Assembly (NCBI GenBank): GCA_044226485.1
Contig: JBGAGY010000007.1
Coordinates: forward strand, 195,060 to 259,059
Direction of reading: 5' to 3'
Length of the DNA stretch: 64,000 bases
Source: Anaerolineales bacterium
GTDB lineage: Bacteria > Chloroflexota > Anaerolineae > Anaerolineales > UBA6663
Shown here: in pieces, positions 6,083 through 63,062 of the stretch
Numbering within the stretch: position 1 is the stretch's first letter
Layout of the letters: the number at the start of each line of letters is the position of its first letter
The notes under the pieces: model-generated
Seen by the model: only the letters and a program-made list of their open reading frames with translations
Told to the model about the DNA's origin: nothing
The model's database searches: none
Made by a program: the position numbers and the translations under genes

Positions 6083-6850
6083 CTACGCCCGCTTTCGATA
6101 GATCCGCATCGCCCAGATGTACGCCGCCAGCATGATGCCGATGCACCAGGCCAGGGCGACCCAGAGATCGCTCCCGACCGGCTGAGCCGATAGCAGGGCG
6201 CGGATGGCCTCGACGATCGCGGTGACTGGCTGATGTTCGGCAAAAGCCCGGACGAGGGGCGGCATCATCGCCGTGGGCACGAACGCCGAACTGATGAAGG
6301 GGAGGAAGATCAGCGGATACGAGAAGGCCCCAGCCCCATCCACTGAAGTGGCGGAAAGGCCGGCAATCGCCGCGACCCAGGTGAGGGCCAGCGTGAACAG
6401 GGTGAGGATGCCAGTCACGGCCAGCCAGGCCAGCACGCCCGCCGGCGAGCGGAAGCCGATCAGGAGCGCCACCAGGATGATCACGACGACGGAGATCGCG
6501 TTGGACACCAGTGAAGTCAGCACATGACCCCACAGCACCGCTGAACGCGCGATCGGCATGGAGTGGAACCGCTCGAAGATCCCACGTTGCTTGTCCATGA
6601 ACAAACGATACGAGGTGTAAGCGATGCCGCTGGCGATCGCGATCAGCAAGATGCCAGGCAGCAGATAGTTCACGTAATGGTCGGTGCCGGTTTGAATGGC
6701 GCCGCCAAAGACATAGACGAACAGCAGCATGAACGCGATCGGCATGATCGTGACCGTGATGATGGTGTCCAGGCTGCGAAACACATGTCGCATGGACCGG
6801 CCGAGCATCACGCTCAGATCGTTGATCAAGTGGGTGTGGCTGACGTCCAT
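6083..6850 (-). CDS. ABC-2 type exporter permease (DrrB-like)
   Basis: 255 aa with six predicted hydrophobic spans. The start abuts the stop of the upstream ATPase gene (0-nt gap). Confidence 0.85.
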   Translation of the reverse strand: MDVSHTHLINDLSVMLGRSMRHVFRSLDTIITVTIMPIAFMLLFVYVFGGAIQTGTDHYVNYLLPGILLIAIASGIAYTSYRLFMDKQRGIFERFHSMPIARSAVLWGHVLTSLVSNAISVVVIILVALLIGFRSPAGVLAWLAVTGILTLFTLALTWVAAIAGLSATSVDGAGAFSYPLIFLPFISSAFVPTAMMPPLVRAFAEHQPVTAIVEAIRALLSAQPVGSDLWVALAWCIGIMLAAYIWAMRIYRKRA

Positions 6851-7621
6851 TTAGGCGACCTCCTGATGGCCGATGATAGCGAGGAAGATCTCCTCAAGGC
6901 TCGGTTGCTTCTCGATGTATTCCACTTTTGCGGGCGGGAACTGCCGCTTCAGTTCCTCGAGGGTGCCGTTCGCGATGATCCGACCCTCATGCAGGATGGC
7001 AATGCGATCGGCGAGCTGCTCGGCCTCCTCGAGATATTGCGTGGTGAGAAAAACCGTCGTGCCGTTTTGGGCCAGCTCTTTGACCGTCTTCCAGACCTCG
7101 AGGCGCGCTTCAGGGTCGAGCCCAGTGGTCGGCTCGTCGAGGAAGATGAGCGGCGGTTTCCCGACCAGACTCATAGCGATGTCGAGCCTGCGGCGCATCC
7201 CTCCCGAGTAGGTGGACACCCTGCGGTCGGCGGCGGCCGCCAGGCCGAAGCGGTTCAACAACTCGTTCGCGATCGGACGCGGGGCTGCCAAATGCCGAAG
7301 CTCGGCGATCATGGTCACGTTTTCGCGCCCGGTCAGTATCTCGTCGACGGCGGCGAATTGCCCGGTCAGGCTGATCGACCCGCGCACCTGATCAGGCTGC
7401 GTCGCGACGTCGAAACCGTTGACCATGGCGGTGCCCCTGTCGTAGGGGAGCAGCGTGGTCAATATCTTGACGATCGTGGTCTTGCCTGCGCCGTTAGAAC
7501 CCAGCAGCGCGAACACGCTGCCCTTCTTGACCTCGAAATCGACGCCCTTGAGCACCTCGAGGGTTTTGTAGGACTTCTTCAGCCCGTTCACCTGGATGGC
7601 TTGATCGTGCAATGTGTTCAT
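6851..7621 (-). CDS. ABC transporter ATP-binding protein (DrrA-like)
   Basis: Walker A GSNGAGKTT, signature YSGGMRRRL, Walker B IFLDEPTTGLD. Confidence 0.9.
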   Translation of the reverse strand: MNTLHDQAIQVNGLKKSYKTLEVLKGVDFEVKKGSVFALLGSNGAGKTTIVKILTTLLPYDRGTAMVNGFDVATQPDQVRGSISLTGQFAAVDEILTGRENVTMIAELRHLAAPRPIANELLNRFGLAAAADRRVSTYSGGMRRRLDIAMSLVGKPPLIFLDEPTTGLDPEARLEVWKTVKELAQNGTTVFLTTQYLEEAEQLADRIAILHEGRIIANGTLEELKRQFPPAKVEYIEKQPSLEEIFLAIIGHQEVA

Positions 7622-51345: not shown

Positions 51346-51378
51346 CCAGCGGCGGACTGCAGAAGGCGTCTGATCTCT

Positions 51379-51442
51379 GACGAATGACGAAGGACGAAGG
51401 TTGAGTGAGACAACCTTCGTCCTTCGTCCTTCGTCATTCGTC
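51379..51442. repeat. heptamer-periodic hairpin repeat, copy a (GACGAAG units, 3 vs 4 units in the arms)
   Basis: Left arm GACGAAT-GACGAAG-GACGAAG-GTTG, loop AGTGAGA. The right arm is the complement of GACGAAT-(GACGAAG)x3-GTTG. Lies between convergent genes. Confidence 0.9.
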
Positions 51443-51472: not shown

Positions 51473-52648
51473 TTACTTCCCCGAATTCCGCGTCGCCACG
51501 TCGAAGATCACGGCCGCGACCAGGACAGCGCCACGCAGGATGTACTGGTAGGCGATGCCGGTTCCCATCAGGTTCATGCCCGAGATCAAAGAACCCATCA
51601 CCAGAGCGCCGATGAGCGAGCCGGTCACCTTGCCGACGCCGCCCGCCGCCGACACGCCGCCGACATAGGCCGCCGCGATCGCGTCGAGCTCGAACAGATT
51701 GCCGGCCGTGGTCGTCGCCGATTGCAGCCGCGAGGTGAAGAGGATCCCCGAGAGCGCCGCGAGCATGCCCATTGAGCCGAACACCACATACGTGATCCGG
51801 CTGAAGCTGATGCCGCTGAGCTCGGCCGCCTCCGGGTTGCCGCCCACGGCGTAGATGTGCCGGCCGAGCACGGTCTCGGAGGTGATGAAGTGGTACAGGC
51901 CGACGATGATCAGGACGACGACCACCGTCCACGACAACCCGTTGTAGCCGGCCATGACCCAGGTGACGCCAGCCAGAATCAGCGAGACCACCACCAGCTT
52001 GACCATGAATATCTGGGAGGGCAGCACCTCGAAGTCGTACGACTGCTTCTTGCGCCGGTTGTTGAACTCACTGGCGATGTAGAGCACGATCGCCACAAGG
52101 CCGATGACCAGGGTCAGCACATGCACGCCAGCGCCCTGCACGATGTCCGGGATGTACCCGTTGCCGATCGCGTTGAAGATCGGATCGGGCACAATGATCG
52201 TGCCGGTGCCTTCGGTGGCGAGCAGCAGGGCGCCGCGATAGATCAGCCAGCCGGCCAGCGAGGCGACGAAGGCCGGGATTTTCATCCGTGCGACCAGGAA
52301 GCCCGTGATCAGGCCGCCAAACGCGCCGAGGACGAGCACCAACGGAATCGCGACGTAGACCGGCAACGACCAGGCGGTCAGGGCGATCGCCGCCAGCGCG
52401 CCGATGAAACCCGCCAGGAAGCCGACCGAGAGGTCGATCTGCCGGATGACGATAACGAGTGTCATGCCGACCGCGAGCACTGCGATGTACCCGGTCTGGT
52501 TGAACAGGTTGCTGATGTTGCGCGACGACAGGAACACGCCGTTGGTCAACACCCCGAACATGACCATGATCACGAACAGGGCGATCAACATCCCGTAGTC
52601 GCGGATGTTTTGGCGCAGGACTTTGCCAAGGCTCTGGGTAAATGACAT
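51473..52648 (-). CDS. CUT2 sugar ABC transporter permease (XylH/GguB-like)
   Basis: 391 aa, about 10-12 TM, typical family sequence. 12 nt downstream of the ATPase gene. Confidence 0.9.
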   Translation of the reverse strand: MSFTQSLGKVLRQNIRDYGMLIALFVIMVMFGVLTNGVFLSSRNISNLFNQTGYIAVLAVGMTLVIVIRQIDLSVGFLAGFIGALAAIALTAWSLPVYVAIPLVLVLGAFGGLITGFLVARMKIPAFVASLAGWLIYRGALLLATEGTGTIIVPDPIFNAIGNGYIPDIVQGAGVHVLTLVIGLVAIVLYIASEFNNRRKKQSYDFEVLPSQIFMVKLVVVSLILAGVTWVMAGYNGLSWTVVVVLIIVGLYHFITSETVLGRHIYAVGGNPEAAELSGISFSRITYVVFGSMGMLAALSGILFTSRLQSATTTAGNLFELDAIAAAYVGGVSAAGGVGKVTGSLIGALVMGSLISGMNLMGTGIAYQYILRGAVLVAAVIFDVATRNSGK

Positions 52649-52660
52649 CTTCGGCTCCCC

Positions 52661-54181
52661 CTAGTTCGTGGCCAGGTGCATGATCTTTTCTTGCGTCGCC
52701 TCGCCGATCGGCATTTCGCCGGCGATCCGTCCAGAGGCGACGATATAAATGCGATCGCTCATGCCCAGGATCTCGGGCAATTCAGACGAGATCATGAGGA
52801 TGCTCAGGCCTTGCTGAACGAGCTGATTCATGATCGTGTAGATCTCGTACTTCGCGCCGACGTCGATGCCGCGCGTCGGTTCGTCAAGGATCAGCAGGCT
52901 CGGGCTGACGAACAGCCACTTGCCCAGCGATACTTTCTGCTGGTTGCCGCCGCTCAGGTTGCCCACGGTCTGCTCGACGCTCGGCGTTTTGATGTTCAGC
53001 GATGAGCGATAGCCGTTGGCAACCTGGATTTCGCGGTTGGCGTCGACCACGCCGCGCTCGGCGAGCGCGCGCAGGTTGGCCAGGCTGATGTTCTGCTTGA
53101 CGTCCTGGATCAGGATCAGGCCGTCTCCCTTGCGGTCTTCGGTGACGTAGGCGATGCCGGCGCGGATGGCGTCCTCCGGCGTGCGCAGATCGCGGCGCGA
53201 TCCGTTGAGGTAAAGCTCGCCATTCAGCCGGTAGCCATCCGGGTTTCCGAAGACGCTCAGCGCGAGTTCAGTACGGCCGGAGCCCATCAGGCCGGCGAGC
53301 CCGACGATCTCGCCCTTGCGCACGTTGAGGTTCACGTCGCGCAGGATGCGGCGGCCACTGCCCGACTCGATGGCGTTCCAGTCGCGCAGTTCGAGCACCG
53401 TCTCGCCGAATGCGTGAGCCTCGCGGGCCGGGTAGACGTTGTCGATCTCGCGGCCGACCATGTGCTTGATCAGCATGCCCTCGGTGACGCTGTCGCCTTC
53501 CTTGTCGAGCGTGCAAATCGTCTGCCCGTCGCGCAGCACCGTGATGGTGTCGGCGATGGCCATGACCTCTTTGAGCTTGTGCGAGATCATGATGCAGGTC
53601 ACGCCGTGGGTGCGCAGATCGCGCAACAGGTCGAGCAGGTTGGCGCTGTCGTCCTCGTTGAGCGCCGCGGTCGGCTCATCGAGGATCAGGAGCTTGACGT
53701 CCTTGCTCAGCGCCTTGGCGATCTCGACAAGCTGCTGCTTGCCGACGCCGAGCTCGCGGATCGTGGCCGCCGGGTTGACGTTCAGACGCACCTTCTTGAG
53801 CATCTCGACCGACTGTTTGATCGTCTCATTCCAGTCGACGAGCAAGCCGTTGCGGACTTCATGGCCCAGGAAGATGTTCTCGTAGACCGTCAGGTCGGGC
53901 ACGAGCGCCAGTTCTTGATAAATGATGGCGATGCCGGCGCGCTCGCTGTCGGCGATGCCCGAGAAGCGTTGAGGCACCCCGGCGAAAAGGATCTCGCCCG
54001 AATATGAGCCGTGCGGGTAGACGCCGCTGAGCACCTTCATCAGCGTCGACTTGCCGGCGCCGTTCTCGCCGACGAGGCAGTGGATCTCGCCCTCGGCGAC
54101 CTTGAAGCTGACGTTGTTCAGGGCTTTGACGCCCGGAAATTCCTTGGTGATGTTGCGCATCTCAAGGATCGGGGGTTTCAT
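52661..54181 (-). CDS. CUT2 sugar ABC transporter ATP-binding protein, tandem NBD (XylG/GguA/MmsA-like)
   Basis: 506 aa. NBD1 has GENGAGKST, LSVGKQQ-type signature and ILDEPTAAL; NBD2 has GLMGSGRTE, LSGGNQQK and LILDEPTRGID. Confidence 0.95.
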   Translation of the reverse strand: MKPPILEMRNITKEFPGVKALNNVSFKVAEGEIHCLVGENGAGKSTLMKVLSGVYPHGSYSGEILFAGVPQRFSGIADSERAGIAIIYQELALVPDLTVYENIFLGHEVRNGLLVDWNETIKQSVEMLKKVRLNVNPAATIRELGVGKQQLVEIAKALSKDVKLLILDEPTAALNEDDSANLLDLLRDLRTHGVTCIMISHKLKEVMAIADTITVLRDGQTICTLDKEGDSVTEGMLIKHMVGREIDNVYPAREAHAFGETVLELRDWNAIESGSGRRILRDVNLNVRKGEIVGLAGLMGSGRTELALSVFGNPDGYRLNGELYLNGSRRDLRTPEDAIRAGIAYVTEDRKGDGLILIQDVKQNISLANLRALAERGVVDANREIQVANGYRSSLNIKTPSVEQTVGNLSGGNQQKVSLGKWLFVSPSLLILDEPTRGIDVGAKYEIYTIMNQLVQQGLSILMISSELPEILGMSDRIYIVASGRIAGEMPIGEATQEKIMHLATN

Positions 54182-54213
54182 AGGCGGGTGGCTCCCTGAA
54201 CGCGAAGCGGGGG

Positions 54214-54247
54214 CAGGCGGGGCGAAGGTATTCCTTCGCCCCGCCTG
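54214..54247 (-). repeat. intercistronic 15-bp-stem hairpin after the binding-protein gene (minimal member of the heptamer family)
   Basis: CAGGCGGGGCGAAGG-TATT-CCTTCGCCCCGCCTG, 18 nt after the SBP stop and 32 nt before the ATPase start. No U-tract. Confidence 0.8.
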
Positions 54248-54265
54248 TTTCAGACAGTGGTTAGT

Positions 54266-55414
54266 TTACGGCAAACCGGTGAAGTCGGAAGCCTGGTAGT
54301 AGCCGGAGTCGATCAACGCGGCCTTGACGTTGTCCTTGTCGACCGAGATGACCTCGGACTGCTTGGCAGGGACGTCGATCTTGCCGTTGTTGTACGAGCC
54401 GGTCGTCGCGGGCTTCTCGTCCTTCAGCAGGGCCACGGCCATGGTAATGGCGTCGGCCACGAGCGTGCGGACGTCCTTGAAGACCGTCATCGACTGCTTG
54501 CCGTCGATGATGTACTGCACTGAAGCCTTCTCGGCGTCCTGGCCGGTGACGACGTAGGACGCGACGTCCTTGTCGGCGGCGAAGGCGTCGGCGATGGCGC
54601 GGGCCGTGCCGTCGTTCGGCGCGAGGATGAAGACGTTGCCCTTGTCGGCGGCGGCTGTGGCGGTCAGGTTGGCTTCAGCCAGGCCCTTGGCCGTGTTGAA
54701 GTCCCAGTTCGTCGTGACCTGGCCGATGATCGTGCTCATCTCATCGCGGCTCAGCTCGGCCTTGCCCTGCAGGGCCACGGCTTCGCTCGAGTTCTTGATC
54801 ACGTACGTGCCGTCAGCGATCTTGGGCTGCAGCACCGACCACGCGCCCTGGAAGAACAGGAAGGCGTTGTTGTCGGTCGCCGCGCCAGCGTAAAGGAAGA
54901 GCGGGTTGCCGGTGCCCGTGGTCTTGTTGACCAGGTACTGGGCCTGGGCGGCGCCCACTGCCACGCTGTCGAACGTCACGTAGTAGTCGACGGCGTCGGT
55001 GTCGGTGATCAGGCGGTCATACGACACGACCTTGATGCCGGCGGCGCGGGCGGCCTCAGCGGCGGCAGCGGCGGCAGCGCCGTCCTGCGGGCAGATGATG
55101 AGGACCTTGATGCCCTTGGTGATCAGAGCTTCGACGTTGGCCTTCTCCTTCGCGGAGTCGCCCTGGCTGAACAGGATCTCGACGTCGTAGCCGGCCTTGG
55201 TCAGCGCGTCCTTGAAGCGGGTCTCGTCCTGTACCCAGCGGGGCTCGTCCTTGGTCGGAAGCACGATGCCGACCGCGAGCTTCTCGCCCGTCTCGCCAGA
55301 ACCTGAAGGCGCGGCGGTGGGGGCGGCTGCCGGCGTGCAGGCGGTCATCAGAAGGGAAGCGCTGGCCACGAGGGACAGGGCACCCATAGCAAACCGATTG
55401 AATGTGCGACTCAT
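54266..55414 (-). CDS. ChvE-like multiple-monosaccharide ABC substrate-binding lipoprotein
   Basis: Signal plus lipobox LLMTAC. Whole-length resemblance to ChvE (VVSYDRLITDTDAVDYYVTFDSVAVG, DNNAFLFFQGAWSVLQPKI, VTGQDAEKASVQYIIDGKQSMTVFKD). SD AAAGGAGAG. Confidence 0.9.
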   Translation of the reverse strand: MSRTFNRFAMGALSLVASASLLMTACTPAAAPTAAPSGSGETGEKLAVGIVLPTKDEPRWVQDETRFKDALTKAGYDVEILFSQGDSAKEKANVEALITKGIKVLIICPQDGAAAAAAAEAARAAGIKVVSYDRLITDTDAVDYYVTFDSVAVGAAQAQYLVNKTTGTGNPLFLYAGAATDNNAFLFFQGAWSVLQPKIADGTYVIKNSSEAVALQGKAELSRDEMSTIIGQVTTNWDFNTAKGLAEANLTATAAADKGNVFILAPNDGTARAIADAFAADKDVASYVVTGQDAEKASVQYIIDGKQSMTVFKDVRTLVADAITMAVALLKDEKPATTGSYNNGKIDVPAKQSEVISVDKDNVKAALIDSGYYQASDFTGLP

Positions 55415-55500
55415 CTTTCTCTCCTTTAGATCATGCGGTTCGAACGAGGTGGATGCGATGGTCCGGTTTTTCTCGCGCGCATCACCTCCCTTCGTCAGAT

Positions 55501-56565
55501 CTAGTGGCTCGGATCGCTCAACGAGCCCAAAGTGTCTTGGATGACCTGCCGCAGCGCCGCCACGTCAAGGTCTTTTTTGTCGAGATAGGCCACGGCGCCG
55601 GCATTGAAACCGAGCCGTCGGAACTCCCGATCCGGGTAAGCGCTGATCAGCACGACGCGCGTCTCCGGCGAAATCGCCTTCAGGCGCCGCGTGCATTGGA
55701 TGCCGTCTTCATCGCGCAGCACTACGTCGATGAATGCCAGATGCGGATGGGTCCGCTCGGCCGCGACCAGCGCGTCGGCGATGTCGCCGGCTTCAACCAC
55801 ATGCGACGATGGATGAGTCTTGCCGATCAGCCGCGCCATCTGCTCGCGGTAGCGCGGGTTGTCGTCGACGAGCAGCACGTTCAGCTGCCCGGCCGGCCTG
55901 ACTTCGGGCACCTGGCTCACCGGCTCCGGATCGCGCAGCACATCCGGATAGCGCATCGCGAAGTTCGTGGCCTCGAGCCGGCTCTCGACCGCCAGCGATC
56001 GATACAGGCTGGTCAGGTGGTTCTCGACCGTCTTGACGCTCAGGTCCATCGCCTGCGCGATCTTGCGGTTGTCGAAGCCCTGCATCAGCAGCCGCAGCAA
56101 CTCACGCTGCCGTCGCGTGAGCACCGGCGTCGCTCGCGGCGGGGCGGGCTGACGGTGCACCAGCCGATCGACCAGTTGCGCCGGGATCCAGCGCTCGCCT
56201 GCCACAACGCGCGCCACCGCCAGCTGCAGGTCCGCCAGCGGCTGATCCTTCAGGTGGTAACCGTCCACGCCCGCGCCCAACAGACCTACCAGGTAGGCCT
56301 CGTCGGCGTAGGCGCTGACCACCAGGATCTTCATCGTCGGGTACTGTGTTTTGAAGGTGCGGACCGCCTCGACGGGCTCGAACTCCGGCATCGCCACGTC
56401 GATGACGATCAAATCCGGCTGCCACTCGGCCACTGCCGCGACAAGATCCGGCCCGTTGCCGACCTCGGCAACAACCTCGAGCTCGGGCCGGCCGGTCAGG
56501 GCGTTCCTCAGACCCGCCCTCACGACCGCGTGGTCGTCGGCGAGAACAATTCGAATGGCAGCCAT
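55501..56565 (-). CDS. response regulator with REC - LuxR/NarL HTH - REC architecture
   Basis: REC1 (LADDH..IVIDVAMP..VVSAY..YHLKD), HTH (LTRRQRELLRLLMQGFDNRKIAQAMDLSVKTVENHLTSLY), REC2 (LVDDN..AFIDVVL..LISAY..YLDKKD). Confidence 0.9.
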   Translation of the reverse strand: MAAIRIVLADDHAVVRAGLRNALTGRPELEVVAEVGNGPDLVAAVAEWQPDLIVIDVAMPEFEPVEAVRTFKTQYPTMKILVVSAYADEAYLVGLLGAGVDGYHLKDQPLADLQLAVARVVAGERWIPAQLVDRLVHRQPAPPRATPVLTRRQRELLRLLMQGFDNRKIAQAMDLSVKTVENHLTSLYRSLAVESRLEATNFAMRYPDVLRDPEPVSQVPEVRPAGQLNVLLVDDNPRYREQMARLIGKTHPSSHVVEAGDIADALVAAERTHPHLAFIDVVLRDEDGIQCTRRLKAISPETRVVLISAYPDREFRRLGFNAGAVAYLDKKDLDVAALRQVIQDTLGSLSDPSH

Positions 56566-56610: not shown

Positions 56611-56638
56611 GGGGGATGCCCCCTAGGGGGATTTCCCC
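56611..56638. promoter_or_regulatory. G5-CTAG-C5 quasi-palindrome in the divergent control region (operator candidate)
   Basis: GGGGGATGCCCCCTAGGGGGATTTCCCC; the core CCCCCTAGGGGG (56619-56630) is a perfect 12-nt palindrome. Confidence 0.3.
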
Positions 56639-56679: not shown

Positions 56680-56769
56680 GCGAGGAGCGTAGAGCGAGGA
56701 GCGAACGCTGCCGCGCAAGTTCGAGCGCGAGATCGCGGTAGCGTTCGCTCTTCGCTCTACGCTCCTCGC
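56680..56769. repeat. heptamer-periodic hairpin repeat, copy b (30-bp stem, 30-nt loop)
   Basis: Left arm GCGAGGAGCGTAGAGCGAGGAGCGAACGCT pairs with right arm AGCGTTCGCTCTTCGCTCTACGCTCCTCGC with a single G-T pair. Heptads are GAGCGAG/GAGCGTA/GAGCGAG/GAGCGAA. Confidence 0.9.
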
Positions 56770-56797: not shown

Positions 56798-57880
56798 ATG
56801 CCTATTCGACTGGTCCTCTGCTCGATCCTCGTGTTCGTGCTGGTCGGCTGTGTCCCGCCGACGCCGGCGTCGACGCAGGGCAAGATCGCGTTGCTGTTGC
56901 CCGAGACGAAGACGACGCGTTACGAGTCGCACGACCTGCCGATCTTTCGCGCGCAGCTTGCCGCTCGCGGCTTCAACGTCGACCGTGACCTCATCTACAG
57001 CAACGCCACCCAGGATGCCGCGGCGCAGCAGCAGCAGGCCGAAGCGGCGCTGACCAACGGCGCGAAGGTGCTCGTCCTCGATCCGGTCGACTCCAGCTCG
57101 GCCACGGCCATCGCCGAGCTGGCCCAGTCACGCGGCGTTCCCGTGATCGCGTACGATCGATTGATCACCGACTCGTCGGCCGTCGATTACTACGTGTCGT
57201 TCGATAACGTCATGGTCGGGCGGTTGCAGGCCGAAGCGCTGCTCGACGCGCTCAAGGATGTGAAAGACCCGCGCATCGTGATGTTGAACGGCTCGCCGCT
57301 CGACAGCAACACGACCCAGTATCGTTTGGGGGCGATGGCCGTGCTGGGCAGCCGTGTGACGATCGCGCAGAGTTTCGACGTGCCCGACTGGAGTCCTGAC
57401 AAGGCCCAGGAGTTCATGGCCCAGGCGCTCACTGCCCTCGGCAATCGCGTCGACGGCGTCTACGTCGCCAACGATGGCATGGCCGGCGGCGCGATCGCGG
57501 CGATGAAAGCCGCGGGCCTCGAGCCACTGCCGCCCGTGACCGGCCAGGACGCCGAGCTGGCGGCCATCCAACGCATCCTCGTCGGCGAGCAGTACATGAC
57601 CGTCTATAAGGCGATCCACCGCGAAGCCACCGCCGCCGCTGACCTGGCCTACGTGCTCTGGCAGGGCGGCAAGCCGGACGAGGGGCTCTTCAACAGCCAC
57701 GTCGACAACGGGCGCATCAAAGTGCCCGCGATCCTGCTTCAACCCGTCAGCGTCACCCGTGATAACCTGCGCGCCACGATCTTCGCCGACAAGTTCTGGG
57801 ACCCGAGCGAGGTCTGCGTCGGCGAGGTCGCGGCCGCCTGCAGTGAGACCGGCATCGACCTCGGGGAGGGCGCTCCATGA
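56798..57880 (+). CDS. XylF-like sugar-binding lipoprotein (sensor-module binding protein)
   Basis: Signal plus lipobox VLVGC. Collinear with E. coli XylF (VIAYDRLITDSSAVDYYVSFDNVMVGRLQAEAL; GSPLDSNTTQYRLGAMAVL; VTGQDAELAAIQRILVGEQYMTVYKAI; NNGRIKVPAILLQPVSV). Confidence 0.9.
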   Translation: MPIRLVLCSILVFVLVGCVPPTPASTQGKIALLLPETKTTRYESHDLPIFRAQLAARGFNVDRDLIYSNATQDAAAQQQQAEAALTNGAKVLVLDPVDSSSATAIAELAQSRGVPVIAYDRLITDSSAVDYYVSFDNVMVGRLQAEALLDALKDVKDPRIVMLNGSPLDSNTTQYRLGAMAVLGSRVTIAQSFDVPDWSPDKAQEFMAQALTALGNRVDGVYVANDGMAGGAIAAMKAAGLEPLPPVTGQDAELAAIQRILVGEQYMTVYKAIHREATAAADLAYVLWQGGKPDEGLFNSHVDNGRIKVPAILLQPVSVTRDNLRATIFADKFWDPSEVCVGEVAAACSETGIDLGEGAP

Positions 57881-59088
57881 CCACCGCCGGCGCCAGCCAT
57901 CTGCCGCGTGTGCTCGGCCAGGCGTGGGCGCGCATCAACCGCCCTGACTTCGCCTACGTGCCGACCGTTGTCGGCCTCGCGTTGGTCTGGCTGGTCCTTC
58001 AACTCGTCAATCCCAACTTCCTCAGCCCGCTCAACCTGACCAACCTGATGCTGCAGATCGCGGCCATGGGCACGATCGCGGTTGGTCTCGTGCTCGTGTT
58101 GTTGCTGGGCGAAATCGACCTCTCGGTCGGCGTGGTCAGCGGCCTGGCCGCCGTCGTCATGGCCGTCCTCAACGTCAAGGCCGGCGTCCCCGGCACGATC
58201 GCGGTGATGGCCGGTGTCGGGACCGGGCTGGCGATCGGGCTCGTTCAGGGCAGCTGGATCACCAAACTGCGGATCCCATCGTTCATCGTCACGTTGGCAG
58301 GGCAGTTGGCCTGGCAGGGAGCTTTGCTGTACGTCCTTGGCAATACCGGCACCGTCAACCTGCGTGATCCGTTCATCCTCAGCCTGGCCGGCACGTTCTT
58401 CAAACGCGATGTGCCCGGCGGTGAGGCGCTGAGTTGGGTGATTGGCGGCGTGTTCGTCAGCGTGTACGCGATCGGGTTGGGGTGGGAACGTCGCCAGCGC
58501 TTGAGCGCCGGCCTTGCCGCGCGTTCGTTACGGGCGGTGATCGTGCAGGTGGTCGTGATCGCCGTCGCCGGGCTCGGCGCCATCGTGATCCTCAATGCGG
58601 ACCGCGGGTTGCCGTCGGCGCTCGTGTTGTTCATCGGCGTGGTGGTCGTGTTCGACTTCATCACGCGGCGGACGGTCTTCGGGCGCAGCATCGCCGTCGT
58701 CGGCGGGAACCCTGAGGCGGCCCGGCAGGCAGGCCTCGACGTCGACCTGATCCGCATCACGGTCTTCGGCCTGGCGTCGATGCTGGCGGCCTTCGGCGGC
58801 ATCCTGGCGGCCTCGCGTTTGCTGGCCGTTCACCAGGCCTCAGGCAGCGGCGACGTGTTGTTGAACGCCATCGCGGCCGCCGTCATCGGGGGTGTGAGTG
58901 TCTTCGGCGGCCGCGGCAGCGTGTGGTCGGCTGTCCTCGGCGCTTTGGTCGTCGGCTCGATCTCGAACGGCATGGATCTGCTCGTCGTGGCGGCGCCGGT
59001 CAAGTTCATGGTCACCGGGGCTGTGTTGCTCGGCGCCGTCACGCTCGACGTCCTGGCGCGTCGCCGTCGCATTGCCGCCGGCGAGTAA
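57877..59088 (+). CDS. CUT2 sugar ABC permease (XylH/RbsC-like)
   Basis: 403 aa polytopic. The start overlaps the upstream stop (ATGA), indicating translational coupling. Confidence 0.9.
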   Translation: MTTAGASHLPRVLGQAWARINRPDFAYVPTVVGLALVWLVLQLVNPNFLSPLNLTNLMLQIAAMGTIAVGLVLVLLLGEIDLSVGVVSGLAAVVMAVLNVKAGVPGTIAVMAGVGTGLAIGLVQGSWITKLRIPSFIVTLAGQLAWQGALLYVLGNTGTVNLRDPFILSLAGTFFKRDVPGGEALSWVIGGVFVSVYAIGLGWERRQRLSAGLAARSLRAVIVQVVVIAVAGLGAIVILNADRGLPSALVLFIGVVVVFDFITRRTVFGRSIAVVGGNPEAARQAGLDVDLIRITVFGLASMLAAFGGILAASRLLAVHQASGSGDVLLNAIAAAVIGGVSVFGGRGSVWSAVLGALVVGSISNGMDLLVVAAPVKFMVTGAVLLGAVTLDVLARRRRIAAGE

Positions 59089-59094
59089 GGGTTG

Positions 59095-59198
59095 TTGCCA
59101 CGAATGACACGACTTGAAAAGGATGGGCCCGGGTGGCCAGGTGAGTTGTCCGAGTCAACTGGGTGCCGGTTCGTTTCAATGTGTCCAATTCGTGGCAA
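59095..59198 (+). promoter_or_regulatory. long-range inverted repeat enclosing a structured intercistronic region upstream of the NBD::kinase gene
   Basis: TTGCCACGAAT-GACAC (59095-59110) is complementary to GTGTC-c-AATTCGTGGCAA (59181-59198): 16 bp with one bulge, enclosing 70 nt that include an inner AGTTG/CAACT hairpin. Confidence 0.35.
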
Positions 59199-59235
59199 AG
59201 CTCTTCGCTGACAGGGTATCCGATAGGAAGTGGAC

Positions 59236-60819
59236 ATGAGCGAACCTGTGCTCCGCGCACTTAACCTCTCGAAACGTTTCGGGCGCCTCTGGGCCCTCGA
59301 GAACGTCAGCTTCGAGGTGCAGCCGGGCGAGGTGGTCGGCGTCGTCGGTCGGCGTGCCTCGGGCAAATCGACCCTGCTGCACGTCGTCGCCGGAACGTAT
59401 CCGCCGCAGACGGGTGAGATCTGGCTGGGCGACCAGCGTCTGCGCTTCGCGGGGCCGCCGGCGTCGCGGCGGTATGGCATCGAGCTCGTTCATCAGCGTC
59501 CCGTCTTGTCCGATCAGATCGACGTCACCCAGAACATCTTCCTTGGACGCGATCGCAGCTGGCGCGCGCAAATCGGGTTCCCGGATCTGGCCTGTCAGGC
59601 GCGTCGCGCTCGCGAGTTGCTGGCCGAGCTCGATACTCCAGCGGATCTGCTCTACGCGCGGCTCGATGGCCTTTCGGACGAACAGCGTCAGATCGTGGCG
59701 TTGGCCAGGGCCTTCTGCCAGCCGGCTCGCGTCATCCTGCTCGACGAGGCGCTGGCCGCGCTCAGCTTCCAACGCCAGGAGCGCTGCCTCACGCTGATCC
59801 GACGCCTGTCGGCGCAGGGCATTGCCTTCCTCATCGCCAGCGACAACCTCAAGCACCTGTTCGAGGTGACCCACCGCATCCTCGTGCTCTACGAAGGGCG
59901 GCTTGTCGCTGATCAACCGACCAGCGAGGCCACGCCGCGCGAAATCGTCGAACGCATCGTCGGCGCCGCGCAACATGAGCAGGTGACGCCCGTGATCTGG
60001 GCGCTCGAGAGCTATCACCAGTTGCAGCAACAGGCTGAAGACCTGCGACGCAAGCAGACGGCGCTTCAGGAAGATCTGCAGGTACAGGGTTCGCTCAACC
60101 AGCAACTGCTTGTGCGGATGCGCAATCAGGTCGACGCGCTCGATCGGCTCAACGTCGCTCTGCAGGCCGCGCAGCGCCGCCTGATGACCGAACGCGAGCA
60201 GGAGCGCAAAGCGCTGGCTCGTGAACTGCATGACTCGATGATCCAGGACCTGCTCAGCTTCAACTACCGGCTCGAAGACCTCGAGGGCCACACCGCCGAC
60301 GTCCAGCAGCGCGCCGAGCTGGCAGAACTGCGCGAAGACATCCGCACCATCGTCAGCGACCTGCGCCGGCTGTGCAGCGACCTGCGCCCGCCGACGATCG
60401 ACAGCCACGGCCTCACCGCGGCGATTCGTTCGCACGCGCAGGAATGGGCTGACAAGCACCGCGTCGGCCTGGACCTCGACGTCGATAGCGCCCTCGGCCG
60501 CCTGCCCGAACCGATCGAGTTGTCGATCTTCCGCATCGTGCAGGAGGCGTTGAACAACGTGCGCAAGCACGCCTCAGCCCGGCATGTGCGTCTTTCGCTT
60601 CAGCGCACGGCGTCAGCGCACCTGCTCCTGCGCCTCGAAGATGACGGCCTCGGGATGACCGAGCCCGTCAACCTTGCGACTCTCTCGGCCACCAAACACT
60701 TCGGCCTGCTTGGGATCAGCGAACGCGTGGCCCTGTTGGGCGGCACCATGCGCGTCGACACCGCCCAGCAAGGCGGGGTGTCGCTCAGCATCGAGATCCC
60801 CAGCCCGTCGCCGACTTGA
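59236..60819 (+). CDS. ABC nucleotide-binding domain fused to HisKA_3/HATPase_c histidine kinase (NBD::HK)
   Basis: Residues 1-~245 are a single CUT2-type NBD (GRRASGKST, VHQRP, LSDEQRQ, VILLDEA). About 80 aa of heptad-rich helix follow. Then H-box LARELHDSMIQDL, N-box QEALNNVRKHA, DDGLGM and GLLGISERV. The ORF is uninterrupted. ATG 59236 is preceded by GGAAG (a GTG at 59230 is also possible). Confidence 0.85.
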   Translation: MSEPVLRALNLSKRFGRLWALENVSFEVQPGEVVGVVGRRASGKSTLLHVVAGTYPPQTGEIWLGDQRLRFAGPPASRRYGIELVHQRPVLSDQIDVTQNIFLGRDRSWRAQIGFPDLACQARRARELLAELDTPADLLYARLDGLSDEQRQIVALARAFCQPARVILLDEALAALSFQRQERCLTLIRRLSAQGIAFLIASDNLKHLFEVTHRILVLYEGRLVADQPTSEATPREIVERIVGAAQHEQVTPVIWALESYHQLQQQAEDLRRKQTALQEDLQVQGSLNQQLLVRMRNQVDALDRLNVALQAAQRRLMTEREQERKALARELHDSMIQDLLSFNYRLEDLEGHTADVQQRAELAELREDIRTIVSDLRRLCSDLRPPTIDSHGLTAAIRSHAQEWADKHRVGLDLDVDSALGRLPEPIELSIFRIVQEALNNVRKHASARHVRLSLQRTASAHLLLRLEDDGLGMTEPVNLATLSATKHFGLLGISERVALLGGTMRVDTAQQGGVSLSIEIPSPSPT

Positions 60820-60820
60820 G

Positions 60821-60869
60821 AGCGAGGGGAGGAGTGCGAGGGGCGAAGGGCGAGGGGCGAGGGGCGATC
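60821..60869 (+). repeat. heptamer tandem array, copy c (seven GGCGAGG-type units, no complementary arm)
   Basis: AGCGAGG GGAGGAG TGCGAGG GGCGAAG GGCGAGG GGCGAGG GGCGATC, starting 1 nt after the TGA of the NBD::HK gene. Confidence 0.9.
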
Positions 60870-61000
60870 AAGAAGGGCTTGACCGGACCGAAAGACAGAT
60901 CGCGTCTTGATGACGCTTCCGCGCGCATCCCACGTTGCCGCCGACTTCAAATACAATTCAGGAATCACGCAACGATCCGGCGATCGTCAAGGAAACCAAT

Positions 61001-61996
61001 ATGAAGGCCGTTGAAACGTTCACGCTCGAAGACACAAGCAGCGCGCGGTTGAGCGCCTCGCCCGAAGGGGTGCGCCGCTTTCAGGAGGCGCAATTCGGCC
61101 TCTCTGTGCACTGGGGCCTGTACAGCCTCGGTCACAGCGGCAATGAATGGACCTACTTCATCGATCGGATCCCGTTCGAAACCTATCGGTCCCGCATGAG
61201 CCAGTTCAACCCCGTGCGCTTCAATGCCGACGAGTGGGGCGACCTGATGCTCGAGGCCGGCCAGAAGTTCCTGATCATCACCACGAAGCACCACGATGGA
61301 TTCTGTCTTTTTGATTCGGCGCTGACCGAGTTCAAGAGCACGCGTGCGCCGTTCATGCGCGACATCATCGGTGAACTCGCGCCGGCGCTGGCCGCGCGCG
61401 GCATCGCCCTGCATTTCTATTACTCGCTGGTCGACTGGACCCATCCCGCCTACCGAAGCGATTGGCCGGCCTATGTCGCCTACTATCAGGGCCAGATCCG
61501 CGAACTGTGCACGCACTACGGCGAGATCGGCGGTTTCGTCTTCGACGGTTACTGGCCTCGCAACGTGTTGGAGACCGACGACGAACGCGACTACTTCGCG
61601 GCGCGCGGTGATTGGGACCTGGCCGGCACCTATGACCTGATCCACAGCCTGCAGCCCAACGCCGTCGTCGGCAACAACACTCATGTGCTGCCGATGCAGG
61701 GCGAGGACTATCAGGTGTGGGAGCTCGATCTTCCGGGCGAGAACACCATCGGCTTCAACACCACCGATGTCGGCAACAAGCCGCTGGCCTCCTGGTGGAA
61801 CATCAACGTCGGCTGGTCGTATCAACCCTGGAACCACCGTCTGCGCAGCGCCGACGACATCCTCGCGCTTCACCGCAAGATCCGCGAGCGCAACGCCACC
61901 TTCATCCTCAACGTCGGCCCGCGCCCGTGGGGCGACATCCACCCCGACGAGCAGAGTGTCCTGAGGCAGGTGGGGCAGGGGCTTCGAAAGGCGTAG
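61001..61996 (+). CDS. alpha-L-fucosidase (GH29 family)
   Basis: [12 protein letters not shown]...[33 protein letters not shown]...[14 protein letters not shown] is typical of GH29. Start set at ATG 61001 (MKAVETF). Confidence 0.85.
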
Positions 61997-62116
61997 AGCG
62001 AGGGGGAAAAGCGGGGGGCGAGGAGCGAGAGGCGAAGGGCGAGGGGCGAGAGGCGAAGGGCGAAGGGCGAAATTCGCGTAAGCGTTCGCCCTTCGCCTCT
62101 CGCCTCTCGCCCCTCG
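61997..62116. repeat. heptamer-periodic hairpin repeat, copy d (8+ units vs 4.5 units)
   Basis: Starts directly after the TAG of the fucosidase gene. The left arm has contiguous GGCGAGG AGCGAGA GGCGAAG GGCGAGG GGCGAGA GGCGAAG GGCGAAG GGCGAAA (62017-62072). Loop TTCGCGTAAGCG. Right arm TTCGCCC TTCGCCT CTCGCCT CTCGCCC CTCG (62085-62116). Confidence 0.9.
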
Positions 62117-63002: not shown

Positions 63003-63062
63003 GCGATGGGCGAGAGTCGAGGAGCGAGAGGCGCCTCTCGCTCCTCGACTCTCGCCCATCGC
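63003..63062. repeat. heptamer-periodic repeat, copy e (perfect 60-nt palindrome)
   Basis: GCGATGGGCGAGAGTCGAGGAGCGAGAGGC followed immediately by its exact reverse complement. It lies 2 nt after the Mrp stop and 7 nt before the next ATG. Confidence 0.95.

Follow-up and report, generated by a model that had tools for sequence, protein, structure and literature searches.

Locus and protein architecture

We analysed a locus within 64,000 nucleotides (nt) of DNA from an Anaerolineales bacterium (contig JBGAGY010000007.1; this whole stretch is called the window below), in which the last of three co-directional genes encodes a single ATP-binding cassette (ABC) nucleotide-binding domain (NBD) joined in one chain to a histidine kinase (HK), a fusion that we call NBD::HK. 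All three open reading frames (ORFs) that a first-pass annotation, made from the sequence alone, had placed between 56798 and 60819 were present. The genes and the parts of the fusion are as follows:

56798..57880, plus strand: solute-binding lipoprotein (solute-binding protein, SBP) of the sensor module, XylF/ChvE-like, Peripla_BP_4, 360 aa (Pfam, NCBIfam and structure match)
57877..59088, plus strand: CUT2 permease of the sensor module, BPD_transp_2, GguB/XylH-like, 403 aa (Pfam and NCBIfam)
59236..60819 (alternative GTG start at 59230), plus strand: NBD::HK fusion, a single open frame, 527 aa from the ATG (Pfam, motifs and alignment)
59245..59964, plus strand: degenerate ABC NBD, residues 6-245, with P-loop and Q-loop kept (Pfam, 137-sequence alignment, AlphaFold2 (AF2) model and structure search)
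59965..60195, plus strand: conserved helical linker, residues 250-333, a predicted dimeric coiled coil (alignment and AF2)
60196..60384, plus strand: dimerisation and histidine-phosphotransfer domain (DHp; HisKA_3), with phospho-acceptor His334 at codon 60229-60231 (Pfam and alignment)
60385..60804, plus strand: catalytic ATP-binding (CA) domain (HATPase_c), with invariant N443, D471, G473 and G475 (Pfam and alignment)

Residues of NBD::HK are numbered from the GTG at 59230, which gives 529 aa, compared to 527 aa when counted from the ATG at 59236. The ATG is favoured as the start because a Shine-Dalgarno-like AGGAA lies ahead of it at 59225-59229 and because the closest homologues are 527 aa long.

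The first product matched Peripla_BP_4 in Pfam (E=1.3e-58), with XylF and ChvE as its top named relatives (both scores under the equivalog cut-offs) and E. coli XylF as its nearest solved structure (3M9W, E=1.7e-50). A lipobox could be read off its N-terminus, MPIRLVLCSILVFVLVGC, in agreement with the annotation of a XylF-collinear lipoprotein. Its gene shares an ATGA overlap with the next, whose product is, as annotated, a CUT2 permease; no solved structure of a sequence relative of this permease was found in the PDB. In the third product, Pfam detected PF00005 (ABC_tran, 23-175, E=5e-25), PF07730 (HisKA_3, 325-388) and PF02518 (HATPase_c, 431-525), all above cut-offs, which confirmed both the predicted domain content and the position of the NBD within residues 1-245. 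The motifs quoted in the annotation were likewise all found, with GRRASGKST, VHQRP, LSDEQRQ and VILLDEA in the NBD and LARELHDSMIQDL, QEALNNVRKHA, DDGLGM and GLLGISERV in the kinase.

The homologues of the fusion indicate that it is real, not an assembly artefact, and that it is under selection. In a search over 5.8 billion proteins, the best 120 matches were characterised; they measured 498-574 aa (most 525-560 aa) at 56-96% identity, came from NCBI, JGI, ENA and Logan assemblies on contigs of up to 669 kb, and carried all three Pfam domains in 113 cases, the other 7 being without only a recorded HATPase_c match. Overall, the claim of one uninterrupted NBD-kinase ORF was borne out by over 130 collinear homologues (42-96% identity), which come from independent assemblies across all four sources, and by an indel-free junction in 137 aligned sequences. 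A genome-contig scan with the single protein returned only relatives at 84-95% identity (L006-L009), and a metagenome scan about ten full-length loci; the metagenome loci stretch the family down to 42% identity. The NBD-HisKA_3-HATPase_c design was present in thousands of metagenomic sequences and the full-length family collapsed to about five representatives at 50% clustering, which makes for an abundant family of narrow phylogenetic range. All members with a name belong to metagenome-assembled genomes (MAGs) of uncultured Anaerolineales, Anaerolineae or Chloroflexi, and the window kinase gene is 95% identical to that of one Anaerolineales MAG (L009). Database labels of the members are confined to 'ATP-binding cassette domain-containing protein', 'ABC transporter' and 'signal transduction histidine kinase'. 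In the open-access literature and bioRxiv, no account of a histidine kinase with a fused ABC NBD was found, so one in a subscription journal is possible; within that scope, the remark in the annotation that it knew of no characterised example still holds.

The idea of the NBD as a portable input domain was dropped. A representative search returned two look-alike fusions, P0130 (NBD-TPR_MalT+GerE) and P0159 (NBD-GAF+HisKA), each represented by one sequence on one contig of ~2 kb and without architectural relatives among the 5.8 billion proteins, and therefore probably chimeras. Two further proteins may each be an independent fusion or an assembly chimera, namely P0142 (842 aa; near-canonical CUT2 N-half-type NBD-3xPAS-HisKA_3) and P0145 (539 aa; L150 190-1809 on a 1976-bp contig; near-canonical NBD-HisKA_3, 32% identity).

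Altered catalytic motifs and a fixed-length linker

The NBD aligned with the N-terminal half of the CUT2 ATPases YtfR, XylG and AraG (model positions 1-245), and the best CUT2 ATPase score of NBD::HK was ~137 bits compared to equivalog cut-offs of 690-850 bits. It is thus a single NBD, matching the N-half only, and NBD::HK has neither the tandem form of ~500 aa nor the canonical half-size NBD of a CUT2 transport ATPase. In the AF2 model the domain adopted a standard NBD fold (pLDDT 80-93), with structure matches to the NBDs of CbiO, MalK, MetN and FtsE at template-modelling scores, normalised to the target, of 0.5-0.85. No PDB chain covering both NBD and kinase was found.

Motif states were counted over 137 aligned family members. 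The Walker A (GRRASGKST) and Walker B (VILLD) motifs of an ABC ATPase were present, the Walker A Lys (K46) and the Walker B Asp (D172) in 137/137 sequences, and the Q-loop Gln (Q89) was kept in 126/137. At the second Gly of LSGGQ, the fourth position of the signature, Glu was found in 136 sequences, Asp in one and Gly in none, the window protein reading LSDEQ. The H-loop position held Asp in 125 (Asp205 in the window), Glu in 7, Asn in 3, Lys in 2 and His in none. The catalytic Glu position after Walker B was Asp in 114, Glu in 20 (window included) and another residue in 3, the window having DE after Walker B and most relatives DD. NBD::HK therefore has neither the ABC signature nor, family-wide, the combination of catalytic Glu and H-loop His that characterises an ABC ATPase. 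Canonical motifs throughout were present in the N-half of the GguA-like ATPase encoded in the window and in the half-size ATPases of three relatives (L146, L147 and L149; see below).

In ABC proteins, hydrolysis of ATP depends on the signature Gly, the H-loop His and the catalytic Glu, whereas binding of ATP does not. Since both the Walker side and the signature side are altered, no dimer containing this NBD is expected to have a consensus ATP site, and the degenerate catalytic motifs argue that NBD::HK signals and does not pump. Of the annotated single CUT2-type NBD fused to a kinase, the fold and the alignment to the CUT2 N-half stood; that it is an ordinary NBD did not, since the signature, the H-loop and mostly the catalytic residue are non-canonical. 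Despite the degeneracy, its mean pairwise identity of 56% indicates that the NBD is under purifying selection (0.56, compared to 0.68 for the linker, 0.68 for the DHp and 0.67 for the CA domain).

The stretch between NBD and kinase, annotated as ~80 aa of heptad-rich helix, proved to be exactly 84 residues, or 12 heptads, in 137/137 sequences with zero indels and a continuous a/d ladder (L272, Q276, L279, L283, Q286, N290, L293, L297, Q300, L304, L307, L311, A314 and L318). N290, an 'a' position, was 99% conserved, and the linker as a whole was as conserved as the kinase core (0.68 vs 0.67-0.68 mean pairwise identity). This pattern matches what would be expected of a register-critical parallel coiled coil feeding the DHp domain.

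In the kinase half, H334, N443, D471, G473 and G475 were invariant (137/137), and PF07730 and PF02518 above cut-offs together with the H, N, G1 and G2 boxes placed it, as annotated, with the HisKA_3 kinases of the NarX/DegS/UhpB/LiaS type (HPK7); UhpB was among its NCBIfam matches. No transmembrane, extracytoplasmic, PAS, GAF or Cache domain was detected in NBD::HK by Pfam, sequence inspection or AF2, and the protein begins straight at beta-strand 1 of the NBD with no hydrophobic segment. It thus has the hallmarks of the kinase of a transporter-dependent two-component system, which is linked to a transporter and has no sensory domain of its own.

Sensor module, neighbouring importer and regulator

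On the other strand lie a response regulator and a second set of CUT2 genes, with a candidate operator in between the regulator and the sensor operon:

55501..56565, minus strand: response regulator with a GerE domain (LuxR helix-turn-helix, HTH) between two receivers (REC-GerE-REC), 354 aa (Pfam, NCBIfam and orthologue alignment)
56627..56638, no strand: candidate operator GGGGATTTCCCC in the divergent promoter region of regulator and SBP (promoter comparison and motif counts)
51473..55414, minus strand: presumed regulated CUT2 importer, ChvE-like SBP/GguA-like/GguB-like (profile matches and synteny)
54266-55414, minus strand: ChvE-like transport SBP, single-domain, 382 aa (profile match)
52661-54181, minus strand: GguA/XylG-like canonical tandem ATPase, 506 aa, 764 bits, as annotated (profile match)
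51473-52648, minus strand: GguB-like transport permease (profile match)

We compared about 19 distinct loci of the family and sorted them into four types:

Type A: SBP, permease and NBD::HK, no ATPase (window, L006-L009, L005)
Type B: kinase and regulator beside a full importer (L001, L003, L067, L072, L073 and the P0116 locus)
Type C: SBP, tandem ATPase, permease and NBD::HK (L065, L066, L145, L148)
Type D: SBP, canonical half-size ATPase (~260 aa), permease and NBD::HK, as a rule with a full importer after them (L146, L149; in L147, SBP and permease are unrelated ones)

The three-gene arrangement of the window is thus kept in relatives, L005-L009 sharing its order. The further claim that the operon has no transport ATPase was true of the window, where no second ATPase gene suitable for the sensor permease was found anywhere in the 64 kb, and was not general, as a complete importer with a tandem or half-size ATPase lies in or beside the kinase locus in 13 of the ~19 loci. 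Because an ATPase is present in types B-D, its absence is lineage-specific and derived in the window, and the 13 loci suggest that, in the basic mode of the family, an NBD tethered to the kinase shares the permease of a transporter or competes for it. The premise that CUT2 importers are powered by a tandem ATPase of ~500 aa failed as a general rule, half-size-ATPase CUT2 systems being found among the relatives. A kept catalytic Glu did not go with an ATPase-less operon, as L005 and L008 (type A) have DD and L003 and L066 (types B and C) have DE. The only other candidate ATPase in the window, at 6851-7621, is of the DrrA-like exporter type and was rejected as a lost half-ATPase (27-32% identity to the half-ATPases, DrrA-like motifs, a putative ABC-2 permease adjoining); this single-NBD ATPase (256 aa) and the adjoining 255-aa ORF (6083-7621, minus strand) are probably an ABC-2 exporter pair.

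A CUT2 SBP/permease set adjoins the kinase in every locus with enough context, and in 13 loci the kinase gene directly follows the CUT2 permease gene, at spacings from a 41-nt overlap to a gap of ~230 nt. In one distant locus (47% identity), a gene for a 610-aa FG-GAP/ASPIC-UnbV protein is inserted between the sensor-type permease and NBD::HK genes (L071 1240-3072). The window SBP was 61% identical to the first SBP of L005, L146 and L149 compared to 30% to the transport SBP at 54266-55414, and the window permease 59-62% identical to the permeases of the same three loci compared to 36% to the GguB-like permease at 51473-52648; the two therefore form a distinct orthologous 'sensor module'. Sensor permeases share 67% identity within their lineage. 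They keep the EAA/NBD-docking loop, which in the window begins at residue 274 (VGGNPEAARQAG, with GGNPEAA at 276) and which differs by lineage, reading EAAR[QR]AG in sensor and EAA[EQ]LSG in transport permeases.

The half-ATPases of L146 and L149 have canonical motifs (GDNGAGKST, LSGGQRQ, LLDEPT and VSHQL). The kinase NBD was closest to the sensor-module half-ATPase of L146 (38% identity, 144 bits), compared to 106 bits for the N-half of GguA and 72 bits for its C-half, and on these similarities the simplest history would be that the kinase NBD is a duplicate of the sensor-module half-ATPase. The half-ATPase would have been duplicated and fused to a HisKA_3 kinase, the catalytic residues of the fused NBD would then have been lost, and the original ATPase would finally have been deleted in the window lineage, leaving a pure receptor. 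A neighbour-joining tree, in which the neighbourhood types were interleaved, did not resolve a single origin of the ATPase-less arrangement.

Transport SBPs with two tandem Peripla_BP_4 domains, both ChvE-like (717-804 aa), are found in many relatives (L001 10885-13050, L003 10955-13123, L006 1-2416, L145 4796-6985, L146 11786-13996, L148 4878-7031 and L149 6296-8473), the window copy being single-domain. Other composite proteins included an 853-aa ATPase with a Peripla_BP_4 match between its two ABC domains (L149 8662-11223) and three proteins of ~866 aa (P0143, P0171 and P0192), of which P0143, the one scanned, has a BPD_transp_2 permease and two ABC domains in one chain. Five Chloroflexota GAF-HisKA kinases of ~1190-1250 aa (P0379, P0390, P0394, P0396 and P0409) carry Peripla_BP_4 or Peripla_BP_1 within the chain and are the conventional wiring of a sugar-binding fold to a kinase in the same phylum.

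The REC-GerE-REC regulator adjoins the kinase in every locus with enough context. Its domains (PF00072 and PF00196) and its scores against the NarL and MctR models (162-165 bits, under the equivalog cut-offs) assign it to the NarL/FixJ family, from which it departs by the extra C-terminal REC. In 16/16 orthologues, the acidic pocket, Asp, Ser/Thr and Lys are conserved in both receivers, which look phosphorylatable. The arrangement of two receivers flanking an HTH is unusual, and it is kept in all 16 orthologues examined; the second receiver may be a phosphate sink, an input for a second kinase or a control of dimerisation. From the pairing of their genes, NBD::HK and the regulator are probably cognate.

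Promoter comparison yielded the palindrome GGGG-NWWT-CCCC (GGGGNWWTCCCC; fuller form TAGGGGAWWTCCCCTA), often with a TAGGGG(G)A half-site downstream. It occurs once in the window (56627-56638), against 0.21 expected, and each fusion locus has one copy in the promoter region that precedes the SBP-led operon; in L005 a further copy precedes the downstream transporter. There were 17 matches in 357 kb of fusion loci, while 1.55 Mb of other loci gave 4, of which 2 adjoin regulator homologues. The site lies ~60 nt from the regulator gene, which is co-directional with the ChvE-GguAB genes and 86 nt upstream of them, so that autoregulation together with induction of the ChvE-GguAB-like importer is the likely output. 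Scans for sigma-70 promoters and terminators found nothing useful.

A 36-nt-arm hairpin at 56680-56769 was rejected as an operator, as it belongs to a heptamer-periodic palindromic repeat present in five intergenic regions (51378-51442, 56680-56769, 60820-60881, 62012-62116 and 63003-63062). These hairpins are GC-rich, built of 7-nt units (CGAGGGG/CGAAGGG/GAGCGAG) with arms of 26-36 nt that are 94-100% complementary, and resemble genome-wide repeats of the repetitive extragenic palindrome (REP) or miniature inverted-repeat transposable element (MITE) kind. Spurious ORFs that contain 'REAKGEGR' and 'RPSPLAP' repeats arise from them, and their Rfam 'miRNA' matches are sub-threshold and spurious. 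The spot between regulator and SBP genes that corresponds to 56680-56769 is hypervariable in close relatives.

In addition to the proximal ribosome-binding site, a Shine-Dalgarno-like GAAGGAGGTG is conserved ~70-150 nt upstream of the transport SBP start, in the window (leader 55415-55500, minus strand) and in L001, L003, L065, L066, L145, L146, L148 and L149. The window copy pairs with CGCATCCACCTC in a fold no stabler than shuffled sequences (z = -1.1), and a hairpin or riboswitch in this leader was rejected on the same value and for want of an Rfam match. Directly 3' of the kinase gene, beyond a copy of the heptamer repeat, lies an alpha-L-fucosidase gene (PF01120, E=3e-56; 60935-61996, plus strand) with no operator site ahead of it; it may hint at fucose-containing substrates.

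Proposed mechanism, alternatives and known systems

We propose that the products of the three genes make up a transmembrane receptor for sugars, which arose from a CUT2 ABC importer and controls the adjacent ChvE-GguAB-like transporter, and give this reading a probability slightly above even (roughly 0.52). The interpretation in the first-pass annotation, a ligand-gated sensor shaped like a transporter, is thereby partly supported. The lipoprotein would bind a monosaccharide outside the cell and, once loaded, dock on a homodimer of the dedicated permease, whose cytoplasmic EAA loops would hold two kinase-borne NBDs in place of a motor ATPase. As the NBD would still bind ATP but lacks residues that fast hydrolysis requires, the NBD pair, closing and opening in response to the ligand, would act as a reversible switch and deliver no power stroke. 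The movement would travel through the rigid, fixed-length parallel coiled coil of 12 heptads into the HisKA_3 DHp domain, where it may set the balance of autokinase and phosphatase activity. The phosphoryl group would then pass to the adjacent REC-GerE-REC regulator, which is predicted to bind the GGGGNWWTCCCC palindrome and to control its own operon, running on into the importer of the ChvE-GguA-GguB type.

A more specific version, which we advance tentatively and consider rather less probable than even, is that a full importer has been turned into a non-transporting equilibrium receptor. ATP would serve as a structural ligand of a doubly degenerate NBD dimer, the permease would relay without translocating, tweezers-like NBD closure would set the register of the 12-heptad coiled coil, and the family would preserve the intermediates, namely a kinase with a full importer, then a sensor module with a half-ATPase, then the ATPase-less receptor.

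Several observations weigh against the receptor reading. The AF2 model is of a monomer, and the long linker helices were predicted at low confidence (pLDDT 44-62). The NBD::HK of the window itself keeps the catalytic Glu (DE), so residual hydrolysis is possible, and GguA could energise the sensor permease in trans. No informative NBD positions tracking the type of the partner permease were found; only columns 146 and 294 separated the groups, and neither lies in the Q-loop groove. Most relatives encode a functional ATPase in the same operon, or have ATPase and kinase share a single permease, so a receptor without transport cannot be the family-wide mode. As for the output, the operator is ~60 nt from the regulator gene compared to 160 nt from the sensor operon, with a repeat hairpin in between, and there is no operator directly upstream of the ChvE-like gene, so that the regulon was deduced from co-directionality.

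Some of these points lead to another explanation, which we consider unlikely for the window. According to it, the window SBP and permease still import through GguA in trans, while NBD::HK competes for permease dimers and reports the engaged or cycling fraction, as a transceptor or occupancy sensor. In types B, C and D the kinase does occur together with just one permease and an ATPase, tandem or half-size, and for these types occupancy sensing must be close to the truth. In the window, a complete GguA ATPase is encoded 2.6 kb away, and the canonical EAA loop and 67% within-lineage identity of the sensor permease are compatible with a working translocator. ABC importers of the CUT1 kind are, moreover, known to share an ATPase (e.g. 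MsiK and MsmK). Against it, the EAA loops differ consistently between the two permease lineages, the sensor-type permease in relatives is served by its own half-ATPase and not by the tandem enzyme, and the loss of the ATPase gene was clean, leaving the ATGA overlap of SBP and permease genes, and took place in two lineages or more, among them L005 and the window clade.

We find it improbable that the NBD has no permease contact at all, acting as a cytoplasmic sensor of nucleotide or energy or as a binder of transport ATPases that is encoded by chance beside regulated transporters. The absence of detectable permease-specific covariation in the NBD fits this idea, as does type B, in which the kinase gene stands apart from the permease gene and beside the regulator; the strict conservation of the P-loop, from which nucleotide binding must matter, would be accounted for as well. 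It leaves unexplained why an ATPase-less SBP and permease with an intact docking loop have been kept in the kinase operon across 62-96% identity, and why, in 13 loci, the permease gene has the kinase gene directly behind it. Also kept, in 126/137 sequences, is the Q-loop Gln, the residue that touches the coupling helix in ABC systems.

NBD::HK is most unlikely to be the true motor of a half-size-ATPase CUT2 importer whose kinase reports transport flux, as proposed for BceAB-BceS. It does carry the only NBD of its operon, with Walker A Lys, Walker B Asp-Glu and Q-loop retained in the window protein. C-terminal regulatory additions to importer NBDs are also common (e.g. MalK and MetN). Conversely, all family members lack the H-loop His, 136/137 have Glu for the signature Gly and 114/137 have Asp for the catalytic Glu, changes that hit both sites of a homodimer, and a canonical ATPase encoded alongside in relatives makes the kinase NBD redundant as a motor. 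Finally, a mis-assembly or frameshift joining ATPase and kinase genes, or a decaying pseudogene, was refuted by the HisKA_3 fusion in more than 130 sequences from four sources on contigs of up to 669 kb, with a junction of invariant length that is conserved like the kinase core, even if the probable chimeras P0130 and P0159 indicate that such artefacts do occur in the data.

It has long been asked how kinases read out the state of ABC transporters (as in Pst-PhoR and BceAB-BceS), and work on the read-out has been hampered by contacts that are weak, indirect and intertwined with transport. With the NBD fused to the kinase, its catalytic residues gone and, in the window lineage, the motor ATPase deleted, the four-protein system of binding protein, permease, NBD::HK and regulator, together with its operator, should isolate the signalling step. 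If the receptor reading is true, the family would be a natural covalent model for the read-out of ABC-transporter conformations by a kinase, an ABC NBD could act as the input domain of a two-component system, a third route from SBP to kinase would run through permease and NBD, and a stepwise conversion of transporter to receptor would be documented and its intermediates kept. The system would also offer a modular chassis for sugar sensors, and thousands of Chloroflexota 'ATP-binding cassette domain-containing protein' entries would be re-annotated. Should the mechanism be wrong, the family would still represent a strongly constrained architecture in want of an explanation.

The system, for which the support from sequence is unusually clean, appears to be a new variant of transporter-coupled two-component sensing, with a covalent NBD-kinase fusion previously undescribed in the open-access and bioRxiv literature. 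Degenerate NBD sites as such have parallels in the C-terminal NBD of CUT2 ATPases, TAP1 and CFTR NBD1, which have lost the H-loop His, the catalytic Glu or the signature and keep ATP binding, and the C-half of the window GguA is itself degenerate (GSGRTE, ISSEL). Those proteins retain one consensus site to drive the cycle, whereas NBD::HK is altered on both sides of the same NBD. UhpC-UhpB of E. coli similarly has a transporter homologue turned receptor that signals to a kinase of the HisKA_3 family, but UhpC is an MFS protein that is not fused to its kinase, and UhpB is a membrane protein.

Transporter-like sensor and kinase are joined in one chain in the SLC5-STAC kinases (CbrA, CrbS and RpuS) and in the Amt-kinase Ks-Amt5 (PMC7096432, PMC9100948, PMC5764959), where the fused part is the membrane translocator of a secondary transporter or a channel. 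The fused part of NBD::HK is just the soluble, energising subunit of a primary (ABC) transporter, with translocator and receptor as separate proteins, the permease having its own gene. Binding-protein-dependent kinases (XylFII-LytS/YesN, LuxP-LuxQ, TorT-TorS, ChvE-VirA and HptA-HptS) offer another comparison. In the XylFII-LytS type, a dedicated non-transporting Peripla_BP_4 paralogue feeds a two-component system that induces a CUT2 importer, similar to the arrangement proposed here, and a 2021 review of SBP-dependent signalling deals only with kinases that have extracytoplasmic docking domains, with no route through an ATPase or NBD (PMC8050422). In all of these systems the SBP touches the periplasmic domain of a membrane kinase; NBD::HK is soluble, has no periplasmic or membrane ligand-binding domain on which an SBP could dock, and would depend on the permease as a relay.

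In BceAB-BceS of Firmicutes, with adjacent genes, a kinase that is intramembrane or has no input domain uses an ABC transporter as its sensor (bioRxiv 10.1101/2020.02.28.969956). BceAB is a type VII exporter-like transporter with an active ATPase, and its permease contacts the transmembrane helices of the kinase; NBD::HK has no membrane segment, and contact would go through the fused NBD on an importer permease. The closest functional precedent, by analogy, is PstSCAB-PhoU-PhoR of E. coli, in which the kinase likewise has no extracytoplasmic sensor and the signal is the conformation of the importer NBDs (PMC5775613). In the Pst system PhoU and a PAS domain provide a non-covalent link, the NBD works as a motor and the substrate is phosphate, compared to a fused and degenerate NBD, no PhoU and a sugar CUT2 system here. 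The PstB substitutions E179Q and Q160K, transport-dead variants locked in the open or the closed state, give opposite PhoR outputs (PMC5775613), a precedent suggesting that the conformation of a transport-dead NBD can suffice for signalling.

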